Shown here piece by piece: positions 8,448 to 26,051 of a stretch of DNA of 54,185 nt. Numbering within the stretch: the first letter of the stretch is position 1; each line of letters begins with the position of its first letter. The position numbers and the translations under genes are program-made. Origin of the DNA: a virus (taxonomy: Duplodnaviria; Caudoviricetes); the IMG/VR virus record IMGVR_UViG_3300017651_000176, positions 1 through 54,185 of that record. One strand, 5' to 3'. The notes beneath the pieces were generated by a model. The model made no database searches, was not told the origin of the DNA, and saw nothing but the letters and a program-made list of their open reading frames with translations.

Positions 8448-8984
8448 TCACTTGGCCGCGGTGGTGTATTTGATCGGGCGGCGTACCGACGTACGAGACA
8501 TGCCCTGCATCATCGCGGCCGCGGCCGCGAGATCCTCTTCGGAATATTTGTGCGGGCCGTCGCTTTCTTCAGGCACGCCGCTGAAGATGTCATTGCGGCT
8601 GATGAATGCGAGGTACGCGAGGTCCAAGGCCTTCTTCAGGTCCCGGCTGAATGCACGGTAATGAAGTTCGATCTCCAGGAACTGGGCCTTTGTGACTTTG
8701 AGCCAAACGTTTTTTTTCCCGCGGTACTGGCGCGTGATGAACGAATTGGATTTGAGAACCATGCCGGCGACCTGGACGAGGAGCCGGCGGTCCTGAGCCG
8801 TTTTGATCGGAAAGCACATCCAGTCTGGGGCGTGGTCGTCTTCGTCAAGATCGGCAAGAGTCATTCCATGCTTTTTGAGCATGGATTCCAGAAAGCGCTG
8901 CGCGTTGTCCTTTTCGCCACCTTCTCCGCGGCGGGCCAGCGCCAGCAGCTTGAGCATCCGCTGGCGTGCTTTGTCATTGGTCAT
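8448..8984 (-). CDS. DUF2786-like phage protein
   Basis: N-terminal RMLKLLALARRGEGGEKDNAQRFLESMLKKHG. Confidence 0.7.
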   Translation of the reverse strand: MTNDKARQRMLKLLALARRGEGGEKDNAQRFLESMLKKHGMTLADLDEDDHAPDWMCFPIKTAQDRRLLVQVAGMVLKSNSFITRQYRGKKNVWLKVTKAQFLEIELHYRAFSRDLKKALDLAYLAFISRNDIFSGVPEESDGPHKYSEEDLAAAAAMMQGMSRTSVRRPIKYTTAAK

Positions 8985-9108
8985 GTCGATTCCAGGGGTC
9001 TGCCGCGGCATGGCGGCGGGTGAAGTGATCGCCGATGGGGACCAGGGCCACCGCCACCAGGGCGAGCAGCGCCAGGCCCCACCAGATGGCGGGGATAGTG
9101 GAGGCCAT
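8974..9108 (-). CDS. 44-aa single-TM peptide (not in ORF track)
   Basis: MASTIPAIWWGLALLALVAVALVPIGDHFTRRHAAADPWNRHDQ read manually; stop overlaps next gene start. Confidence 0.55.
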   Translation of the reverse strand: MASTIPAIWWGLALLALVAVALVPIGDHFTRRHAAADPWNRHDQ

Positions 9109-9308: not shown

Positions 9309-9402
9309 CGGCTTCGGGGAGCGGGCCGGTAGCCCGGTGTAGTTCCTGAAAGTCACTTTCAGCGCCGGTGACGTTGCGGCGCCGGCCCGCTTTCCGAAGC
9401 CG
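9309..9402 (-). ncRNA. Cloverleaf-like structured RNA element, copy A
   Basis: Closing stem CGGCTTCGGGGAGCGGG / CCCGCTTTCCGAAGCCG enclosing small hairpins; shares a 20-mer with 12059-12078. Confidence 0.5.
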
Positions 9403-9527
9403 GCCCAGGTCGGGGCAGGCGTGCTGCTACTTGCTGATCGAACGGCCCAAGTTGAAAACGTCGATTAGTTCTTCAATGAGACGAGTGATTGCGTTTAGCA
9501 TCAGGCTTTCCTTTTTTTCAGACCGCT

Positions 9528-10241
9528 ATGACACAGGTGATGGACGAAATTAAAGACAAACTCGGTGTGCCCATCTGGGCGACGATTTACGCGTTCGCAC
9601 TGAGTGGCCTCTATTCTTTTGCGTTTTGGAGACCATTCGGTCTTCAACCGTTTACCTTTTACGCAGTCCAGGACGTCGTTACCTTCGGGTTGGGCAGGAC
9701 TGCCTACTTGGCAGTTGCGCCTTTGATCACCGCCATTGCAGGCTGGGGGCTGTTTTATTGGGGGGTTCTAGCCAGTGCGATATGGCTGCGAGTCTTAATG
9801 GCGTGCTTGCTCGGCGGCATATTCGCAAACCAATTCATTGATGCAATTGACACCTATAAAGCTTACAGTTTTCATTTTTCGAACGAGCTTTCGATACCTG
9901 TGGTCGCTGGAGTCCTGTTCGTTGGCGCCATTGCGCTGTTCGTTAGAGCTTATTGGCATAAGCAAGCTGCTTACGCGCAGGTTCTCGCTCTCGCCGCTGT
10001 TCAGGGCGCAACGATGCTTGCAGCGGGCTACTCAGATGGCAAGCAGATTTACGAAGGCACAGATACGGTTTTCTTTTTGGAAAACAGAGGCCTGTGCGAT
10101 GGCTACTCCCCTCGCGACTGGGTCCATGTTGCCACTCTGGATGAAAGGTCAATCTTTTTGAACACGATCGACAAACGAATTTGCTTCACCAACGAAACCG
10201 ATTTTGTCTTGGTGTCTCGCAAGCGAAGCGAAGTTTTGTAG
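9528..10241 (+). CDS. Moron-like polytopic membrane protein (inverted orientation)
   Basis: About 5 hydrophobic segments plus C-terminal soluble domain with two Cys; AT-richer. Confidence 0.7.
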   Translation: MTQVMDEIKDKLGVPIWATIYAFALSGLYSFAFWRPFGLQPFTFYAVQDVVTFGLGRTAYLAVAPLITAIAGWGLFYWGVLASAIWLRVLMACLLGGIFANQFIDAIDTYKAYSFHFSNELSIPVVAGVLFVGAIALFVRAYWHKQAAYAQVLALAAVQGATMLAAGYSDGKQIYEGTDTVFFLENRGLCDGYSPRDWVHVATLDERSIFLNTIDKRICFTNETDFVLVSRKRSEVL

Positions 10242-10251
10242 GAGCTTCTTA

Positions 10252-10443
10252 TCATCCAAATGACGCGGCGTGAGTGCTTGTAGTGAACGATACGCCGGAG
10301 CTCTCGTCGCCACGCATTTCCAGGTCGTCGCCGGGTCGGTACGCGTGGCTGGCCAGGGCGGCTTCGAGGTCATCCTGGGTCAAGGACCTCGGCGCGGACA
10401 GCCGGTACAGTTTCTGATCCTTGAACCAAATAAAGAGCTCCAT
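10252..10443 (-). CDS. Phage hypothetical protein
   Basis: 63 aa directly downstream of ssb. Confidence 0.5.
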   Translation of the reverse strand: MELFIWFKDQKLYRLSAPRSLTQDDLEAALASHAYRPGDDLEMRGDESSGVSFTTSTHAASFG

Positions 10444-10463
10444 GGCGGCGCCGCCGTCCAGGG

Positions 10464-10964
10464 TTAGATGAAGTGGGCTTTGCGCCCGCCCAACGGGGCG
10501 AAGGGGATGTCGTCGTCCATCGAGGCGAGGCTGCCGCCGGCAGGCTGCGACGAGGTGGGGTTCTGGCGGGGGCGGGAATCGGTGCCGTCAGGCGCGTCAG
10601 CCGCATGGCCGCCCTGCTGAGAGGCATCGCGGCCGCCCAGCATTTGCATTTGATCGGCGATGATCTCGGTGCTGTAGCGGTCGGCCCTGGTTTCTCGGTC
10701 TTGCCACTTTCGGGTCTTGAGGCGGCCTTCGATGTAGACGGGCCGCCCTTTGCGCAAGTATTCGCCGGCGATTTCAGCCTGGCGGTTGTACATAACCACG
10801 CGGTGCCATTCCGTCTCTTCGCGGCGCTCGCCCGTGGCCTTATCCTTCCACGTGGAAGTGGTGGCGACGGACATGTTGCAGATCGCCGCGCCATCGGGTG
10901 AGTAGCGCACGTCCGGGTCGCGGCCGAGGTGGCCAATGAGGATCACTTTGTTGACTGAAGGCAT
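10464..10964 (-). CDS. ssb: Single-stranded DNA-binding protein
   Basis: [19 protein letters not shown]...EWHRVV...DDDIPF. Confidence 0.95.
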
Positions 10965-10967
10965 GAC

Positions 10968-11624
10968 CTACTCCAGGACGTTGCGCACCAGCGCGTGGTG
11001 GACCTCTCGAGCGAGTTCCTGCAGGCCGAGCTCGTTGCTGATCGCGTGGGCGCAGGCGATGTCTTCGATCTTGGACTCGCTGGGATGTGTGGCCGGCATG
11101 CTGTCGGCGATGCGGCGACGGATGCGCCACAGCTCGCCGACCAGGCTTTGCGTGATGTACCCGGCCTCGTTGGAAAAGCGAACGTCCGTAAAGCAAAGAC
11201 GCCGGTAGCCAGCGGCCATGAGCACATTGACGCGGTCGTTTGCGCGTTCGATCCAATAGTTCTCCCCGTCCACCTGGCGCCGGTACTCCGTTCCCCACAA
11301 CCGCAGAATTTCGCGGGGAGAGCGGGCGCGCCACAAGTCGAAACCCAGGCGGTTGGCGCGGTCGATGAAACGCTGATCACCGGACCGGCGAATCTGCAGG
11401 GTGTCGACGGGGCGCTCCTTCAGCAGTCGATCCGCCAGGATCGCCGGATCTATCGCGAACGCCGCGGTAACTTCATCACGCAGTGCATCTGCAAAGGCCA
11501 GCCGGGCGAAGCCACGCGTCTGGACCAGGATGTCCGCGCAGGTGTCTTTGCCGGCGCCGGCGCGGCCGACGAGGCCGACGACTGTGTATCGGGGGATGGG
11601 GGAAGGGGGCGGGGTTTGGGGCAT
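10968..11624 (-). CDS. Deoxynucleoside monophosphate kinase (phage type)
   Basis: P-loop GLVGRAGAGKDT, FADALR, PREILRLWGTEYRR, TDVRFSNE. Confidence 0.85.
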   Translation of the reverse strand: MPQTPPPSPIPRYTVVGLVGRAGAGKDTCADILVQTRGFARLAFADALRDEVTAAFAIDPAILADRLLKERPVDTLQIRRSGDQRFIDRANRLGFDLWRARSPREILRLWGTEYRRQVDGENYWIERANDRVNVLMAAGYRRLCFTDVRFSNEAGYITQSLVGELWRIRRRIADSMPATHPSESKIEDIACAHAISNELGLQELAREVHHALVRNVLE

Positions 11625-11677
11625 TGATTCAATCTCGTTCCGTGGCTTGGAGGCCGCCCGGGGCGGTTGTTGAAGCG

Positions 11678-11959
11678 CTATCGAAGCGCCAGGTGTTGAT
11701 CGAGATACGGGTATTGCGGAATCTCGGCGGTGATCGTTTGGCCGTCGGGGTTGGTCCAGGCGCACACGTACTCATTGCGCATAGGGTCCAGCAGCAGGCG
11801 GCCTGCTTTCCCGCAGGAGCGGGCCAGCAGTGTGGTGCGGTTCTTGTCGTCAGCGGCAAGTAGGCGTTGGTCCCTTGCGCCTACTGCGTTTCCGGCGGCG
11901 AAAATGATCGCGGAGGCCGGCAGCGCGACTGCCGCGGCCACGAGTGCAAGTCGTTTCAT
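11678..11959 (-). CDS. Secreted or membrane-anchored phage protein
   Basis: Signal-like MKRLALVAAAVALPASAIIFAAG; two Cys. Confidence 0.6.
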   Translation of the reverse strand: MKRLALVAAAVALPASAIIFAAGNAVGARDQRLLAADDKNRTTLLARSCGKAGRLLLDPMRNEYVCAWTNPDGQTITAEIPQYPYLDQHLALR

Positions 11960-12056
11960 TTCGAGTCCGATGTGATATGGGCGCAATGCGCAGGGGGAAT
12001 TCCGGCTTTGACCATGTCCGGCATGGGCCTGTGCGCGTCAGGCTCGCGGAAGGTGA

Positions 12057-12156
12057 GGGGCTTCGGGGAGCGGGCCGGAAGTGGCCCGGGAGGTCATGGG
12101 TTGAACCGCGATTGCGCCGGCGGCTGGGCGGCGCCGACCCGCTCTCCGAATGCCCC
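12057..12156 (-). ncRNA. Cloverleaf-like structured RNA element, copy B
   Basis: GGGGCTTCGGGGAGCGGG / CCCGCTCTCCGAATGCCCC closing stem; same internal GCGCCG...CGGCGC and CCGG...CCGG hairpins as copy A. Confidence 0.5.
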
Positions 12157-12189
12157 CCCCCATGCAACAGAGCACTGGGGGGCGGCGGA

Positions 12190-12372
12190 TTAGCTGACCA
12201 GGCGGTTCTTGAAGGTGCCCATCGAGCACTGATGCACTTTGTTGTCGACCTTGTAGGTGACGGTGTGGCCCAGGCCGCGGCGCGTGATGGCGGTGACGTT
12301 CGCCGCGACGGGTTTACCGCGCGGGCTGGAGGGCTTCAGTTGATAGGTCTGGCCGGTGGTGATTTCGGGCAT
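12190..12372 (-). CDS. Small basic phage protein
   Basis: 60 aa, RBS GAGGA upstream. Confidence 0.65.
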   Translation of the reverse strand: MPEITTGQTYQLKPSSPRGKPVAANVTAITRRGLGHTVTYKVDNKVHQCSMGTFKNRLVS

Positions 12373-12784
12373 GGGTTCCTCTGTGGTTGTTGACGCCGAC
12401 CGGGCGTCACGGGGTTGAAAACGGGTCTACCAGTGGTTCGCCTTGGCGATCACGTGGAGGATGTTGAAAAGGGCCGCGCCGAGCTGGCGCATCTGCTGCG
12501 TGAAGATTGCGAACATGGATGGGGCCTTACGAGAGGTGAAAGAGAGACGCTCAGGGCGGCGCATCCCGTCGCCGGGGCGCGCCTTTCGCACAGTGTTGGA
12601 CCCCGGCCTGGCGAAATGCCTCGGGGATGCGCCGGCCTGAGCGGCCGTGGAGGGATGCCGGGTTTCCACCGGACTGCCCGCCTGGATGTCTCGGCGGTCT
12701 ACCCCTCATGCCGAAGCTTCGGGCGAATCGGGTGATGGGCCGGCCGTCGCCGCGCTCCTAAGAACGAGCGCCCGAAGGCGCTTC

Positions 12785-12902
12785 ACCATCATCGAAGCGG
12801 GCCGGGCTTGATACCGGCTCTGCCACCCCCGCATGCGTAGACGTGGCGCTCCCGCATGCTCTTGGTTGCGTGTCCTATCCACGCCGCCGCTTCGATGATG
12901 GT
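12785..12902 (-). ncRNA. tRNA-elbow-like structured RNA, copy C
   Basis: Perfect 16-bp stem ACCATCATCGAAGCGG/CCGCTTCGATGATGGT; on minus strand a D-like arm GCGTG-GATAGGA-CACGC and T-like arm GCCGG-TATCAAGC-CCGGC. Confidence 0.55.
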
Positions 12903-13128
12903 CCCCGTCTTTCCGGGGTGTCACATCGCTACGAGCCGACCAGCCGGGGCCGATAGGTCGCTAAGCCAACAGCATCGCGCTCGATGAAGCGCCATCGTCA
13001 CAGGGTTGGCTCCCGCCGCACCTAAGCTGACTCGGTGCGGAATCCCGTGTTTACGACAGTAGGTTGTCAGCCCAGCGGGAGGATCGTGCCCAGCTCATTC
13101 CCCGCACGCGGGGCATGAGCCGGGGCTG

Positions 13129-14426: not shown

Positions 14427-14687
14427 ATGGGTTCTCTGTAGTTGGCTTCGGTAAGCGCCGCACGCGGCGCTGGCCGAAACCCGCTTTTCAGCGGAATCGG
14501 TTGCCGGCATTCCAACCGGCGTGACCGTTTCTGTTCTTGGCCGTCTGCGCCTCACCCTGTTGACCGTGAACCGCGCTTTGGCGGACTGGATACGGTAGGG
14601 ACACCGCGCAGAGCTGCGGCCATGCCCGCAGTTGCGATTGAGCCGGACGAACACCCCACAGGCGGGGTGAGCAACATCGGCGGCAGA

Positions 14688-14699: not shown

Positions 14700-14822
14700 T
14701 GTTCTCGCCTTCCCCAGTCCGACTTAGTGGCGGTGACGTCTCCCGCTTGAGGCGATGCCCTGACTGCTGACTGCGGGTCCGTGGGGGTGTTTCTGGCGCC
14801 GCGTTTGCAGCGTTGAATGAAT

Positions 14823-14865
14823 AATAACCATGGTTATTTAATGAGTCAATAACTATGGTTATTGA
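14823..14865 (-). promoter_or_regulatory. OL operators and pL promoter
   Basis: Palindromes AATAACCATGGTTATT (14823-14838) and AATAACTATGGTTATT (14848-14863) matching OR; minus-strand TTGACT -35 with TATTAT/TATTCA-like -10. Confidence 0.85.
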
Positions 14866-14938
14866 TTGGGCAGGGCGGAACGCGAGGCAGCTTTCGGCTA
14901 CTATCGAAGAATCGTTTTGTTACAAAAGGGAAAGAAAA

Positions 14939-15676
14939 ATGCGGATTCTTACGGGCGGGCTATTAGCTTTGTCGCTATTGGGATGTAAACCCGCAGTGCA
15001 GGGGGATGCGAACAAAGAGCCGCCCCGCAGTCCTGTAGCATCAGCTTCAGAGGGGGCTAGCGCGCCGGCGTCCGCTGTTCCTAAGCCGGCGCAGCCCGGA
15101 GCGGCGCCTTCCTCTGACGCGAAAGGCATCGACCCGGCCGAAATTGTCGAATGCGCTCGTGAGGTGAGCACGGTCATTCGGCTTGCGTGCTACGACGCAC
15201 TTGCCGTGTCGGAAGGTCTTGCGCCGAGAGCCGAAACCGTCGAGAGACCAGCGGTTGGTGCCTGGCGCGTTCGCAAAGACGTTGATCCGCTCACTGACAA
15301 CCCGATCTACTTCGCGACGCTGTTTGCAGATACAGGAAAGGGTAGGTATGGAGGCCCAATCACCCTGACGGTCCGTTGCAAGAACAGTCTTACTGAACTG
15401 TATGTGGGCTGGGGCTCCTACTTGGGAAGCGACGATACGGAAGTCGTTTACCGAATAGACAAGGAAAAGCCGATTCGAGCCGACTGGTCGAATTCGACCG
15501 ACAACAAAGCAACTTTTTTCCCGGGGTCTCCAGTGGCAACATTGAAGAGATTAGTTGACAGCACGTCGTTTGTTGCTAGCGTGACTCCGTACAATGAAAA
15601 CCCTATAACGGCAACGTTTAATACTTCGGGCGCGAAGGAAGCGCTAGCAGACTTGCGTAGTGGCTGCGGTTGGTAG
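14939..15676 (+). CDS. Lipoprotein, VasI/TagO-like (T6SS-associated family)
   Basis: Lipobox LLGC, Pro/Ala linker, CAREVSTVIRLACYDAL, W...DPLTD and terminal CGW pattern. Confidence 0.65.
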   Translation: MRILTGGLLALSLLGCKPAVQGDANKEPPRSPVASASEGASAPASAVPKPAQPGAAPSSDAKGIDPAEIVECAREVSTVIRLACYDALAVSEGLAPRAETVERPAVGAWRVRKDVDPLTDNPIYFATLFADTGKGRYGGPITLTVRCKNSLTELYVGWGSYLGSDDTEVVYRIDKEKPIRADWSNSTDNKATFFPGSPVATLKRLVDSTSFVASVTPYNENPITATFNTSGAKEALADLRSGCGW

Positions 15677-22397: not shown

Positions 22398-23210
22398 ATG
22401 AGCACCATAGTTATGTCGGCCTGCTGGCCGTTGCAAACCAAGACACCGGCCCAGAAGGCGGTGCTGATCAGCCTGGCGGATAACGCCAACGATGAGGGCG
22501 TCTGCTGGCCGTCTGTTGCTCGGATCGCCGAGCGGACGTGCCTGTCGGAGCGCGCCGTCCAAGACGCTATCAAGTGGCTCATCAAGCACGGCGCGATTGC
22601 GGCGACTGGCCGGACTGGGCGCTCTACGGTCTACACCGTGACCCCCGCGAGATATGCACCCCCGCAGGATTTGCACCCCCGCAGCAAATGCACCCCCGCA
22701 GAAGCTGCACCCCCGCAGCAGGTGCACCCCACCCCCGCAGGATCTGCACCCCCACCCCCGCAGCATCTGCACCCCACCCCCGCAGCATCTGCACCCAGAA
22801 CCGTAAAGGAACCTACAGAAGAACCGTCAGGGAACCGCCAAGCGGGCGCCGAAGCGCCCCCCAGGCCTAGCCACCTGACTGCGGAACAGGCCGCCCGGCT
22901 CAACAAGGACGAACTCTGGCAGGCGGGCAAGTCCCTGCTGAACCAGCTGGGCGGCATTCCGCTGGAGCAGTGTGGGGCGTACGTGGGCAAGCTGGTCAAG
23001 GACTACGGCGCCGACACGGTCATGGAGGCCGTGCGCCAGGCCGTGGTGGAGCGACCCGCTGAACCCCGCTCGTACCTGATGGCCACCTGCAAGTCCATCC
23101 GTGCTGGACGGCCGGCGGGCGTGGGCAACAAGAACCGGCAGGAGCAACTGGAGGAGCGCAACCGGCAGGCCGCTTTGGCCGCAGCACGCGGCGAAGGGGG
23201 GGCGGAATGA
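22398..23210 (+). CDS. Replication initiator (O-like, HTH_36)
   Basis: KAVLISLADNANDEGVCWPSVARIAERTCLSERAV; internal iteron array. Confidence 0.85.
   Translation: MSTIVMSACWPLQTKTPAQKAVLISLADNANDEGVCWPSVARIAERTCLSERAVQDAIKWLIKHGAIAATGRTGRSTVYTVTPARYAPPQDLHPRSKCTPAEAAPPQQVHPTPAGSAPPPPQHLHPTPAASAPRTVKEPTEEPSGNRQAGAEAPPRPSHLTAEQAARLNKDELWQAGKSLLNQLGGIPLEQCGAYVGKLVKDYGADTVMEAVRQAVVERPAEPRSYLMATCKSIRAGRPAGVGNKNRQEQLEERNRQAALAAARGEGGAE
22641..22796 (+). repeat. Replication origin iterons (8 copies of CCGCAGnnnnTGCACCC)
   Basis: Eight 17-bp cores, first one degenerate, inside the initiator gene as in lambdoid ori. Confidence 0.85.
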
Positions 23211-25978: not shown

Positions 25979-26051
25979 GCGGGCATGCTCATGGTGAGCC
26001 GCCGGCCTTCCAAGCCGCGCAGCGAGGGTTCGATTCCCTCTGCCCGCTCCA
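25979..26051 (+). tRNA. tRNA-Gly(TCC), atypical
   Basis: GCGGGCA/TGCCCGC-T-CCA; anticodon loop CT-TCC-AA; T-arm GAGGG-TTCGATT-CCCTC; 5-nt D-loop, bulged anticodon stem. Confidence 0.85.

Follow-up and report, generated by a model that had tools for sequence, protein, structure and literature searches.

Which RNA structures lie between the genes of a prophage leftward operon, and what may they do there? The question is raised by a 54,185-nucleotide (nt) provirus record from IMG/VR (IMGVR_UViG_3300017651_000176), analyzed over its whole length and hereafter called the window, whose nearest relatives are found in Achromobacter genomes. An earlier note had described three of its intergenic elements, here E1, E2 and E3, as a single unannotated family of related, cloverleaf-like RNAs. 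E1 and E2 are copies of an undescribed, conserved and folded element, which is absent from Rfam and which, in prophages of Achromobacter, occupies intergenic sites of the leftward early operon. E3 does not belong to the E1/E2 family; it is related, in degenerate form, to a tRNA-like element of 121 nt. The role tentatively favored here for E1/E2, with a probability of about 0.4, is that of cis-acting signals for RNA processing or stability, of an RNase III (ribonuclease III) type, acting in the leftward transcript.

9309..9402, minus strand: E1, member of the long-stem family, defined by its inverted repeat, its fold and a match to covariance model R1 (112 bits)
12057..12156, minus strand: E2, divergent second copy of the E1 family, in direct orientation to E1 (R1, 69 bits)
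12785..12902, minus strand: E3, degenerate tRNA-like element of another family (covariance model R2, 112 bits)

The minus strand is that of the operon transcript; for E1 it was assigned from the direction of this transcript.

Sequence and structure of the three elements

The sequence features reported in the earlier note for E1 and E2 were all found again. The 20-mer GGCTTCGGGGAGCGGGCCGG occurs, without mismatches, at 9310-9329 and 12059-12078, while the reversed pattern, used as a control, has 0 matches; the complementary arms are present in E1 (CCCGCTTTCCGAA, 9386-9398) and in E2 (CCCGCTCTCCGAA, 12138-12150); an inner GCGCCG...CGGCGC hairpin is contained in both. E1 is closed by the reverse complement of GGCTTCGGGGAGCGGGCCGG, found with 2 mismatches at 9382-9401, within an inverted repeat (9309-9329/9382-9402) of 21 nt and 90%. 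The left arms of E1 and E2 are the same, the right arms differ, resulting in two G-U pairs, and the two elements are 70% identical over about 90 nt.

Family members are about 95 nt long and feature a closing stem of 20 base pairs (bp), which encloses two or three hairpins. In E1 the closing stem is 20-21 bp long, and the hairpins are GAAAGTCACTTTC, GCGCCG-loop-CGGCGC and a mini hairpin, CCGG-TAGC-CCGG; the T-like arm of E1/E2 has 4 bp and a 4-nt loop. E2 represents a subtype, common to E2 and copy L044, in which another hairpin takes the place of hairpin 2. All three elements fold far better than shuffled sequences: z scores on the minus strand are -4.45 for E1, -3.06 for E2 and -5.01 for E3, and 0 of 200 shuffles folded as well. 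The plus strand of each folds about equally well.

The perfect closing stem of 16 bp, also reported earlier for E3, is present (12785-12800/12887-12902, 16 nt, 100%); it is composed of a 7-bp acceptor stem and a 9-bp leader/trailer helix (ACCAUCAUC/GAUGAUGGU). Its relatives (G011, G039, G038) are 121-nt tRNA-like elements, aligning with E3 at both ends, which keep intact acceptor, D and T arms and score 43, 42.4 and 45.8 bits with the Rfam tRNA model, the gathering threshold being 29. Their anticodon region is deviant, and none of them is called as a tRNA by ARAGORN. All carry the 9-bp leader/trailer helix, extending the acceptor stem to 16 bp. E3 keeps this long stem through three compensatory pairs, together with a GUGGAUAG D-loop remnant and a T-like arm; its tRNA identity is lost, as E3 itself has no match to RF00005 at E<=10.

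Kinship of all three elements, as originally proposed, is not confirmed. The model R1, built from E1, E2 and five copies collected by an arm-pattern scan, scores 112 bits on E1 and 69 bits on E2; on E3 it scores 8.2 bits (E 8.6). The E3-family model, R2, detects members of its own family in several of these prophages; it recognizes neither E1 nor E2, nor any other copy of their family, the best match on any of these being 15 bits (E 0.17). The tRNA-like shape originally attributed to all three thus has a different meaning in the two families: for E3 the 42-46 bits of its relatives point to real tRNA ancestry, while for E1/E2 the likeness is one of topology only, since ARAGORN found nothing in them and no Rfam tRNA match is obtained at E<=10. 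A promoter-like match overlapping the 5' arm of E3 (12924-12895, minus strand) was discarded, being weak (9/12) and within chance expectation.

Distribution of the E1/E2 family

When analyzed with R1, 27 of 62 Achromobacter species genomes contain the element, at one place each, with the exception of three genomes with two; a sample of 148 further genomes, belonging to the same family as these, yielded only 2 weak matches. In each of three whole genomes a single place was found, which indicates that the element is not a dispersed repeat; a REP/MITE-type repeat was rejected on the same ground, the 27 positive genomes (62 searched) having one or two places each. A scan of IMG/VR viral contigs for the interior motif gave 43 stretches, mostly 6-8 kb from a contig end. 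Two pattern matches, L009 (Gemmatimonadales) and L013 (Mucilaginibacter), were dropped as chance matches of the arms.

No match to E1 was found in GenBank phages by blastn in distant mode. In Rfam 15, neither E1, E2 and E3 nor E4, a fourth long-stem element described below, has a match, either at the gathering threshold or at E<=10, and the element is unmatched at E<=1 in 20 loci with relatives. A literature search on Achromobacter prophage intergenic stem-loops returned nothing relevant. The original proposal, that the operon is punctuated by an unannotated structured family, stands to this extent: such a family, conserved and without an Rfam match, is present, and its stems covary, as described below; the families are two rather than one. 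As a candidate for Rfam the E1/E2 family is clean and well bounded, 63 distinct sequences being aligned.

Conservation of the secondary structure

Pairing is maintained among homologues by compensatory changes. In an alignment of 35 copies, 94.5% of the cells pair and 13 pairs are changed on both sides, compared to 4.5±1.3 in shuffled alignments and to at most 6 in slid controls; when 63 distinct copies are aligned, the fraction of paired cells is 94.7% and the doubly changed pairs number 10, versus 4.4±1.1. In the distant copies L048 and L049 the arms are still complementary, despite sequence changes. The interior follows a different pattern: GAAAGTCACTTTC and CGGTGACG are near-invariant, being found in 33 of 35 copies.

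Genomic localization and orientation

The features of the window needed to place the elements are listed below.

671-747: tRNA-Arg, beside the integrase and excisionase genes
8974..9108, minus strand: gene for a 44-amino-acid (aa) single-pass membrane peptide, without a Shine-Dalgarno sequence, 200 nt from E1
9403..9416, minus strand: small GC hairpin, separating E1 from the stop codon upstream of it
9427..9501, minus strand: pepA, 24-aa open reading frame (ORF) MLNAITRLIEELIDVFNLGRSISK, ending 25 nt before E1; of a type found upstream of 12 of 36 copies
12190..12372, minus strand: 60-aa gene of family f4, directly upstream of E2; found upstream of the element in 5 loci
12427..12516, minus strand: conserved 29-aa ORF, downstream of E4
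12548..12643, minus strand: E4, fourth long-stem element, with 20-nt arms, 95% complementary (z -4.7)
14444..14481, minus strand: short hairpin in the operon 5' leader, with the GGCTTCGG..AAGCG arm motif found in the elements; borderline R1 match (21.7 bits)
14821..14849, minus strand: PL-like promoter match TTGACT-17-TATTAT (10/12), overlapping two 16-bp palindromic operator-like sites
14823-14863: two 16-bp palindromes, AATAACCATGGTTATT and AATAACTATGGTTATT, 9 nt apart, overlapped by the best sigma-70-like match of the region

The PL-like match (14849-14821, minus strand) is probably the start of a leftward transcript spanning all elements, and the two palindromes are probably the operators of the immunity switch. 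The leftward operon comprises genes of unknown function, the 60-aa gene and genes for a dNMP kinase, SSB, an RdgC fragment, the phrog_421 protein, a clamp-like and a ParB-like protein. E1, E2, E3, E4 and the leader hairpin are all intergenic within it. E4, which is a borderline match to R1 (22.5 bits, E 0.0025), and the leader hairpin had been missed by the earlier note.

The arrangement around the E1/E2 element is well defined. In the sense of the operon it reads: upstream stop codon, GC hairpin (5-6 bp), element, mini hairpin, next start codon. Judging by the printed flanks, most copies have beside them a counterpart (GCCCCG-loop-CGGGGC) of the hairpin found at 9403..9416. Among 36 loci, the tiny gene located upstream is the 24-aa pepA in 12, the 25-aa pepB in 5 (plus 3 variants) and the 60-aa f4 in 5. 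In 23 of the 36 a GCGC-loop-GCGC mini hairpin follows, and then a gene for a 42-aa membrane peptide, homologous to the 44-aa one of the window, starting 28-33 nt after the element and also lacking a Shine-Dalgarno sequence; the membrane peptide is present in 33 of 62 Achromobacter genomes. The small peptides belong to no family in Pfam, PHROGs, NCBIfam or the ESM Atlas.

Orientation is constant at every locus where the type of a neighboring small gene could be assigned, which applies to 23 loci for the membrane peptide and to 22 for pepA, pepB or f4; coarser gene maps of the 36 copies agree. The exception is L012/L018, a degraded remnant in which the interior is flipped between the arms. In the flanks of the 36 copies no U-tract follows the element on either strand; no terminator-like site was found at any element, and no promoter match adjoins the E1/E2 element. 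Lacking both a U-tract and an adjacent promoter match, the latter probably acts neither as an intrinsic terminator nor as a gene of its own.

Possible role of the E1/E2 element

Idealized Escherichia coli RNase III substrates are 22-bp helices, and in phage T7 five processing signals are found in one polycistronic early RNA (PMC3867540). The closing stem of E1/E2, 20 bp long with 94.5% of cells paired in the 35-copy alignment, has the length of about two helical turns (20-22 bp) given for such substrates in the same source. A long helix closing a compact domain, within a single early transcript, fits RNase III-type processing or stability signals. E1/E2 may be seen as a prophage-specific cis-acting module, presumably transcribed within the leftward early operon, whose defining feature would be the helix of about 20 bp closing a small branched domain. 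An RNase III-type, double-strand-specific nuclease would cut within the long stem, and the cut would separate the upstream segment, carrying the small gene, from the downstream genes; the structured ends left by cleavage would set the relative stability and the expression of the two segments. E3, E4 and the leader hairpin would be further long-stem modules of the same transcript. For E3, derived from a tRNA-like element, the pairing of leader and trailer provides the same kind of long stem. If this reading is correct, a family of long-stem RNA modules, including one recycled from a tRNA, serves as punctuation of the early operon in temperate phages of high-GC Betaproteobacteria, and such signals would be handles for studying how the doses of early genes are set.

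A number of observations weigh against this role. A plain RNase III site needs no branched interior, and GAAAGTCACTTTC, a 13-bp interior palindrome, hardly varies, a behavior which fits sequence-specific recognition better than a plain double-stranded RNA signal. The plus strand has 43 G-U cells, compared to 31 in the operon sense, where the RNA has 43 A-C mismatches, and the plus strand gives the more stable fold in 25 of 36 copies; wobble pairs, in other words, give no signal for the functional strand. The gene for the membrane peptide has no element nearby in 7 of 10 further loci, and is thus able to do without it; one of these seven loci, G063, contains a remnant with interior motifs only, the arms being gone. 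As for the covariation itself, the counts obtained against shuffled alignments are not probabilities, because the copies are related to one another, and the two alignments, A6 and A12, lean towards structure, both having been fitted to the model and A12 having been chosen in part by the interior motif. Because of the invariant interior, of breakpoints exact at the element edges, of the bracketing of cargo genes and of the lack of a strand signal, readings based on DNA recombination and on protein binding also have to be considered.

The first of these, which is unlikely but has several observations in its favor, sees in the element a DNA-level recombination joint, or a semi-mobile palindromic unit: a linker at which prophage modules and cargo are exchanged, the hairpin potential being a by-product of, or an aid to, strand exchange. 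Homology with other prophages starts and stops exactly at the element edges (one edge at 9310), and contigs of relatives, in four DNA contig sets, which gave mosaic breakpoints only, show loose ends at 9406-9412 and a 9406->13100 joint. L012 shares with the window, in that orientation, only the 93-nt element, whose interior, as mentioned, is flipped between the L012 arms. Copies occur as direct pairs, 2.65 kb apart in the window and, on one strand, 1.6 kb apart in G009 and G011; G004 also has two copies, and the pair in G009 brackets a CspA gene, located on the opposite strand. The identical left and different right arms of E1 and E2 are also compatible with exchange, as is the high variability of the neighboring genes, which include RdgC, ParB-HTH, SSB with dNMP kinase, a reverse transcriptase with RT-15 RNA, CspA and a low-GC membrane ORF. 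Yet only one or two places per genome are occupied, always at the same operon position; no target-site duplication is seen in the printed flanks, and no transposase or dedicated recombinase gene adjoins the element. Gene boundaries are, moreover, mosaic breakpoints in temperate phages anyway, while the compensatory changes, together with an orientation that stays the same, suggest that a folded strand is under selection. A recombination hotspot, if real, would help to explain the swapping of defense and accessory genes at a fixed place in these prophages.

According to a second alternative, quite unlikely, the element serves as binding site for a protein of phage or host origin, which could be a translational repressor, an antiterminator or a DNA-binding regulator, and to which the invariant GAAAGTCACTTTC and an inverted GTCAC/GTGAC pair would be presented on the stem. 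This would account for interior motifs which stay near-invariant while closing-stem positions vary, and which are retained without arms in the G063 remnant; ParB-HTH genes are often nearby, and the absence of a Shine-Dalgarno sequence from the downstream peptide gene may be seen in the same light. No candidate binding protein, however, co-varies with the element; E2 and L044 lack GAAAGTCACTTTC and yet keep the fold; and GAAAGTCACTTTC is not enriched elsewhere in the window, where 12 matches with up to 3 mismatches compare to 7.7±2.9 expected.

It is just as improbable that the elements are excised as stable small RNAs acting in trans, either as regulators or as tRNA-like decoys. P1 c4 and P4 CI RNA are reportedly cut out of operon transcripts in a comparable way, and the compactness of the elements, their long closing stem and their conserved loops would suit such a fate; the tRNA-like relatives of E3 would be substrates of RNase P or Z. 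Complementary targets in the window are, on the other hand, near chance (26 versus 20±3.8 and 12 versus 7.7±2.9 expected), no C4 or other Rfam family is matched, and E1/E2 have no tRNA features.

Finally, the element might anchor a hotspot for cargo capture, entered by modules carrying one copy through recombination at the resident copy, so that accessory or defense genes become bracketed by direct copies in an integron-like cassette system, based on a new folded site unrelated to attC; this is very unlikely. Candidates for such cargo would include a reverse transcriptase of the retron type with its RT-15 RNA, CspA, membrane proteins and the SSB/dNMP-kinase block.

In the Achromobacter prophages L016 (1-1405) and L040, an RVT_1 reverse transcriptase, with an upstream RT-15 RNA (RF03018, 132-134 bits), is located directly upstream of the element, and looks like retron-type cargo. 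The element itself is not regarded as a non-coding RNA associated with a retron or reverse transcriptase: such a gene is adjacent in only 2 of 36 loci, lies upstream and has its own RT-15 RNA. In the window, RdgC is reduced to its first 63 aa (10252-10443, minus strand), the remainder being replaced by a plus-strand 237-aa membrane ORF (9528-10241), belonging to no known family; its GC content is about 0.50, versus 0.64, and position 10394 is where contigs of relatives and the window diverge.

Other structures and features of the prophage

Further structures are found near the elements. A 69-aa gene has, right after its stop codon, a two-tier GC hairpin (13088-13128) with a 32-nt core; in 11 of 62 Achromobacter genomes this core is found with 89-100% identity, usually 0.15-0.6 kb from the E1/E2 element. 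Between E4 and E3, a non-coding segment of about 90 nt (12649-12743) is 93-97% identical in four other Achromobacter genomes, where its flanks are not conserved; its folding z score is only -1.55. In another Achromobacter genome (L062:1758-1855, minus strand), close to an E3-like arm, there is a sub-threshold match to the Rfam Methylophilales-1 RNA (50.6 bits, gathering score 79.9, E 2e-8). The window also carries a phage-borne tRNA-Gly(tcc) (25979-26051, plus strand), a normal tRNA alongside the degenerate tRNA-like E3.

The Rfam Burkholderiales-2 RNA (RF02917) is found at 14608-14681, in the space separating the PL-like promoter from the first leftward gene; it is called on the plus strand, antisense to the leftward transcript, with 97.7 bits against a gathering score of 67.9. 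A literature search on 'Burkholderiales-2' gave nothing relevant: the main text of PMC5737381 contains no mention of Burkholderiales, and its supplements may describe the motif. The first rightward gene (14855-15676, plus strand) encodes a type VI secretion VasI domain (PF11319, E 1.6e-10), where a regulator might be expected. Six to eight tandem iterons of 17-22 nt (CACCCCCGCAG....TGCA) are located at 22641-22796, and probably mark the replication origin of the prophage. A protein-anchored search for further loci with the phrog_421 protein gave one viral locus only.

Comparison with known systems

Resemblance to tRNA (RF00005) concerns the E3 family: the relatives of E3 score 42-46 bits, and E3 itself has retained an acceptor stem, the D-loop GUGGAUAG and an arm similar to the T arm. 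They differ from tRNA in their length of 121 nt, in the deviant anticodon region and in the 9-bp leader/trailer pairing; no tRNA motif is present in E1/E2.

REP/BIME and Correia-type elements are about 100 nt long, with terminal inverted repeats, intergenic and co-transcribed, and are found at rearrangement points. E1/E2 are similar to them in size, inverted repeats, intergenic location and association with rearrangement points, but are not dispersed: a genome of 6-7 Mb has one or two such places, and all of these lie within the prophage operon. Integron attC sites are imperfect inverted repeats of 60-140 nt, which flank variable cassettes in direct orientation. E1/E2 share with them the imperfect inverted repeats, the vicinity of variable genes and the direct copies; their arms, in contrast, lack a GTTRRRY-type core, no integron integrase gene adjoins the element and the copy number is one or two. 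The C4/CI antisense RNAs of phages are small RNAs located within operon transcripts, their structure comprising two hairpins and a stem which closes them. E1/E2, also small structured elements of a phage operon with a closing stem and hairpins, differ from them in having no Rfam match (E<=10) and no complementary target boxes, their loop motifs not being enriched in the window.

The RNase III signals of T7 early mRNA bear no sequence relation to E1/E2, whose interior is branched, with invariant motifs, and which are mostly present in one copy per prophage, in Achromobacter hosts. Similarity lies in the arrangement: several related intergenic hairpins are found in one phage early transcript, their helix has about two turns, and cleavage in T7 leaves structured ends, which set the stability of the mRNA (PMC3867540).

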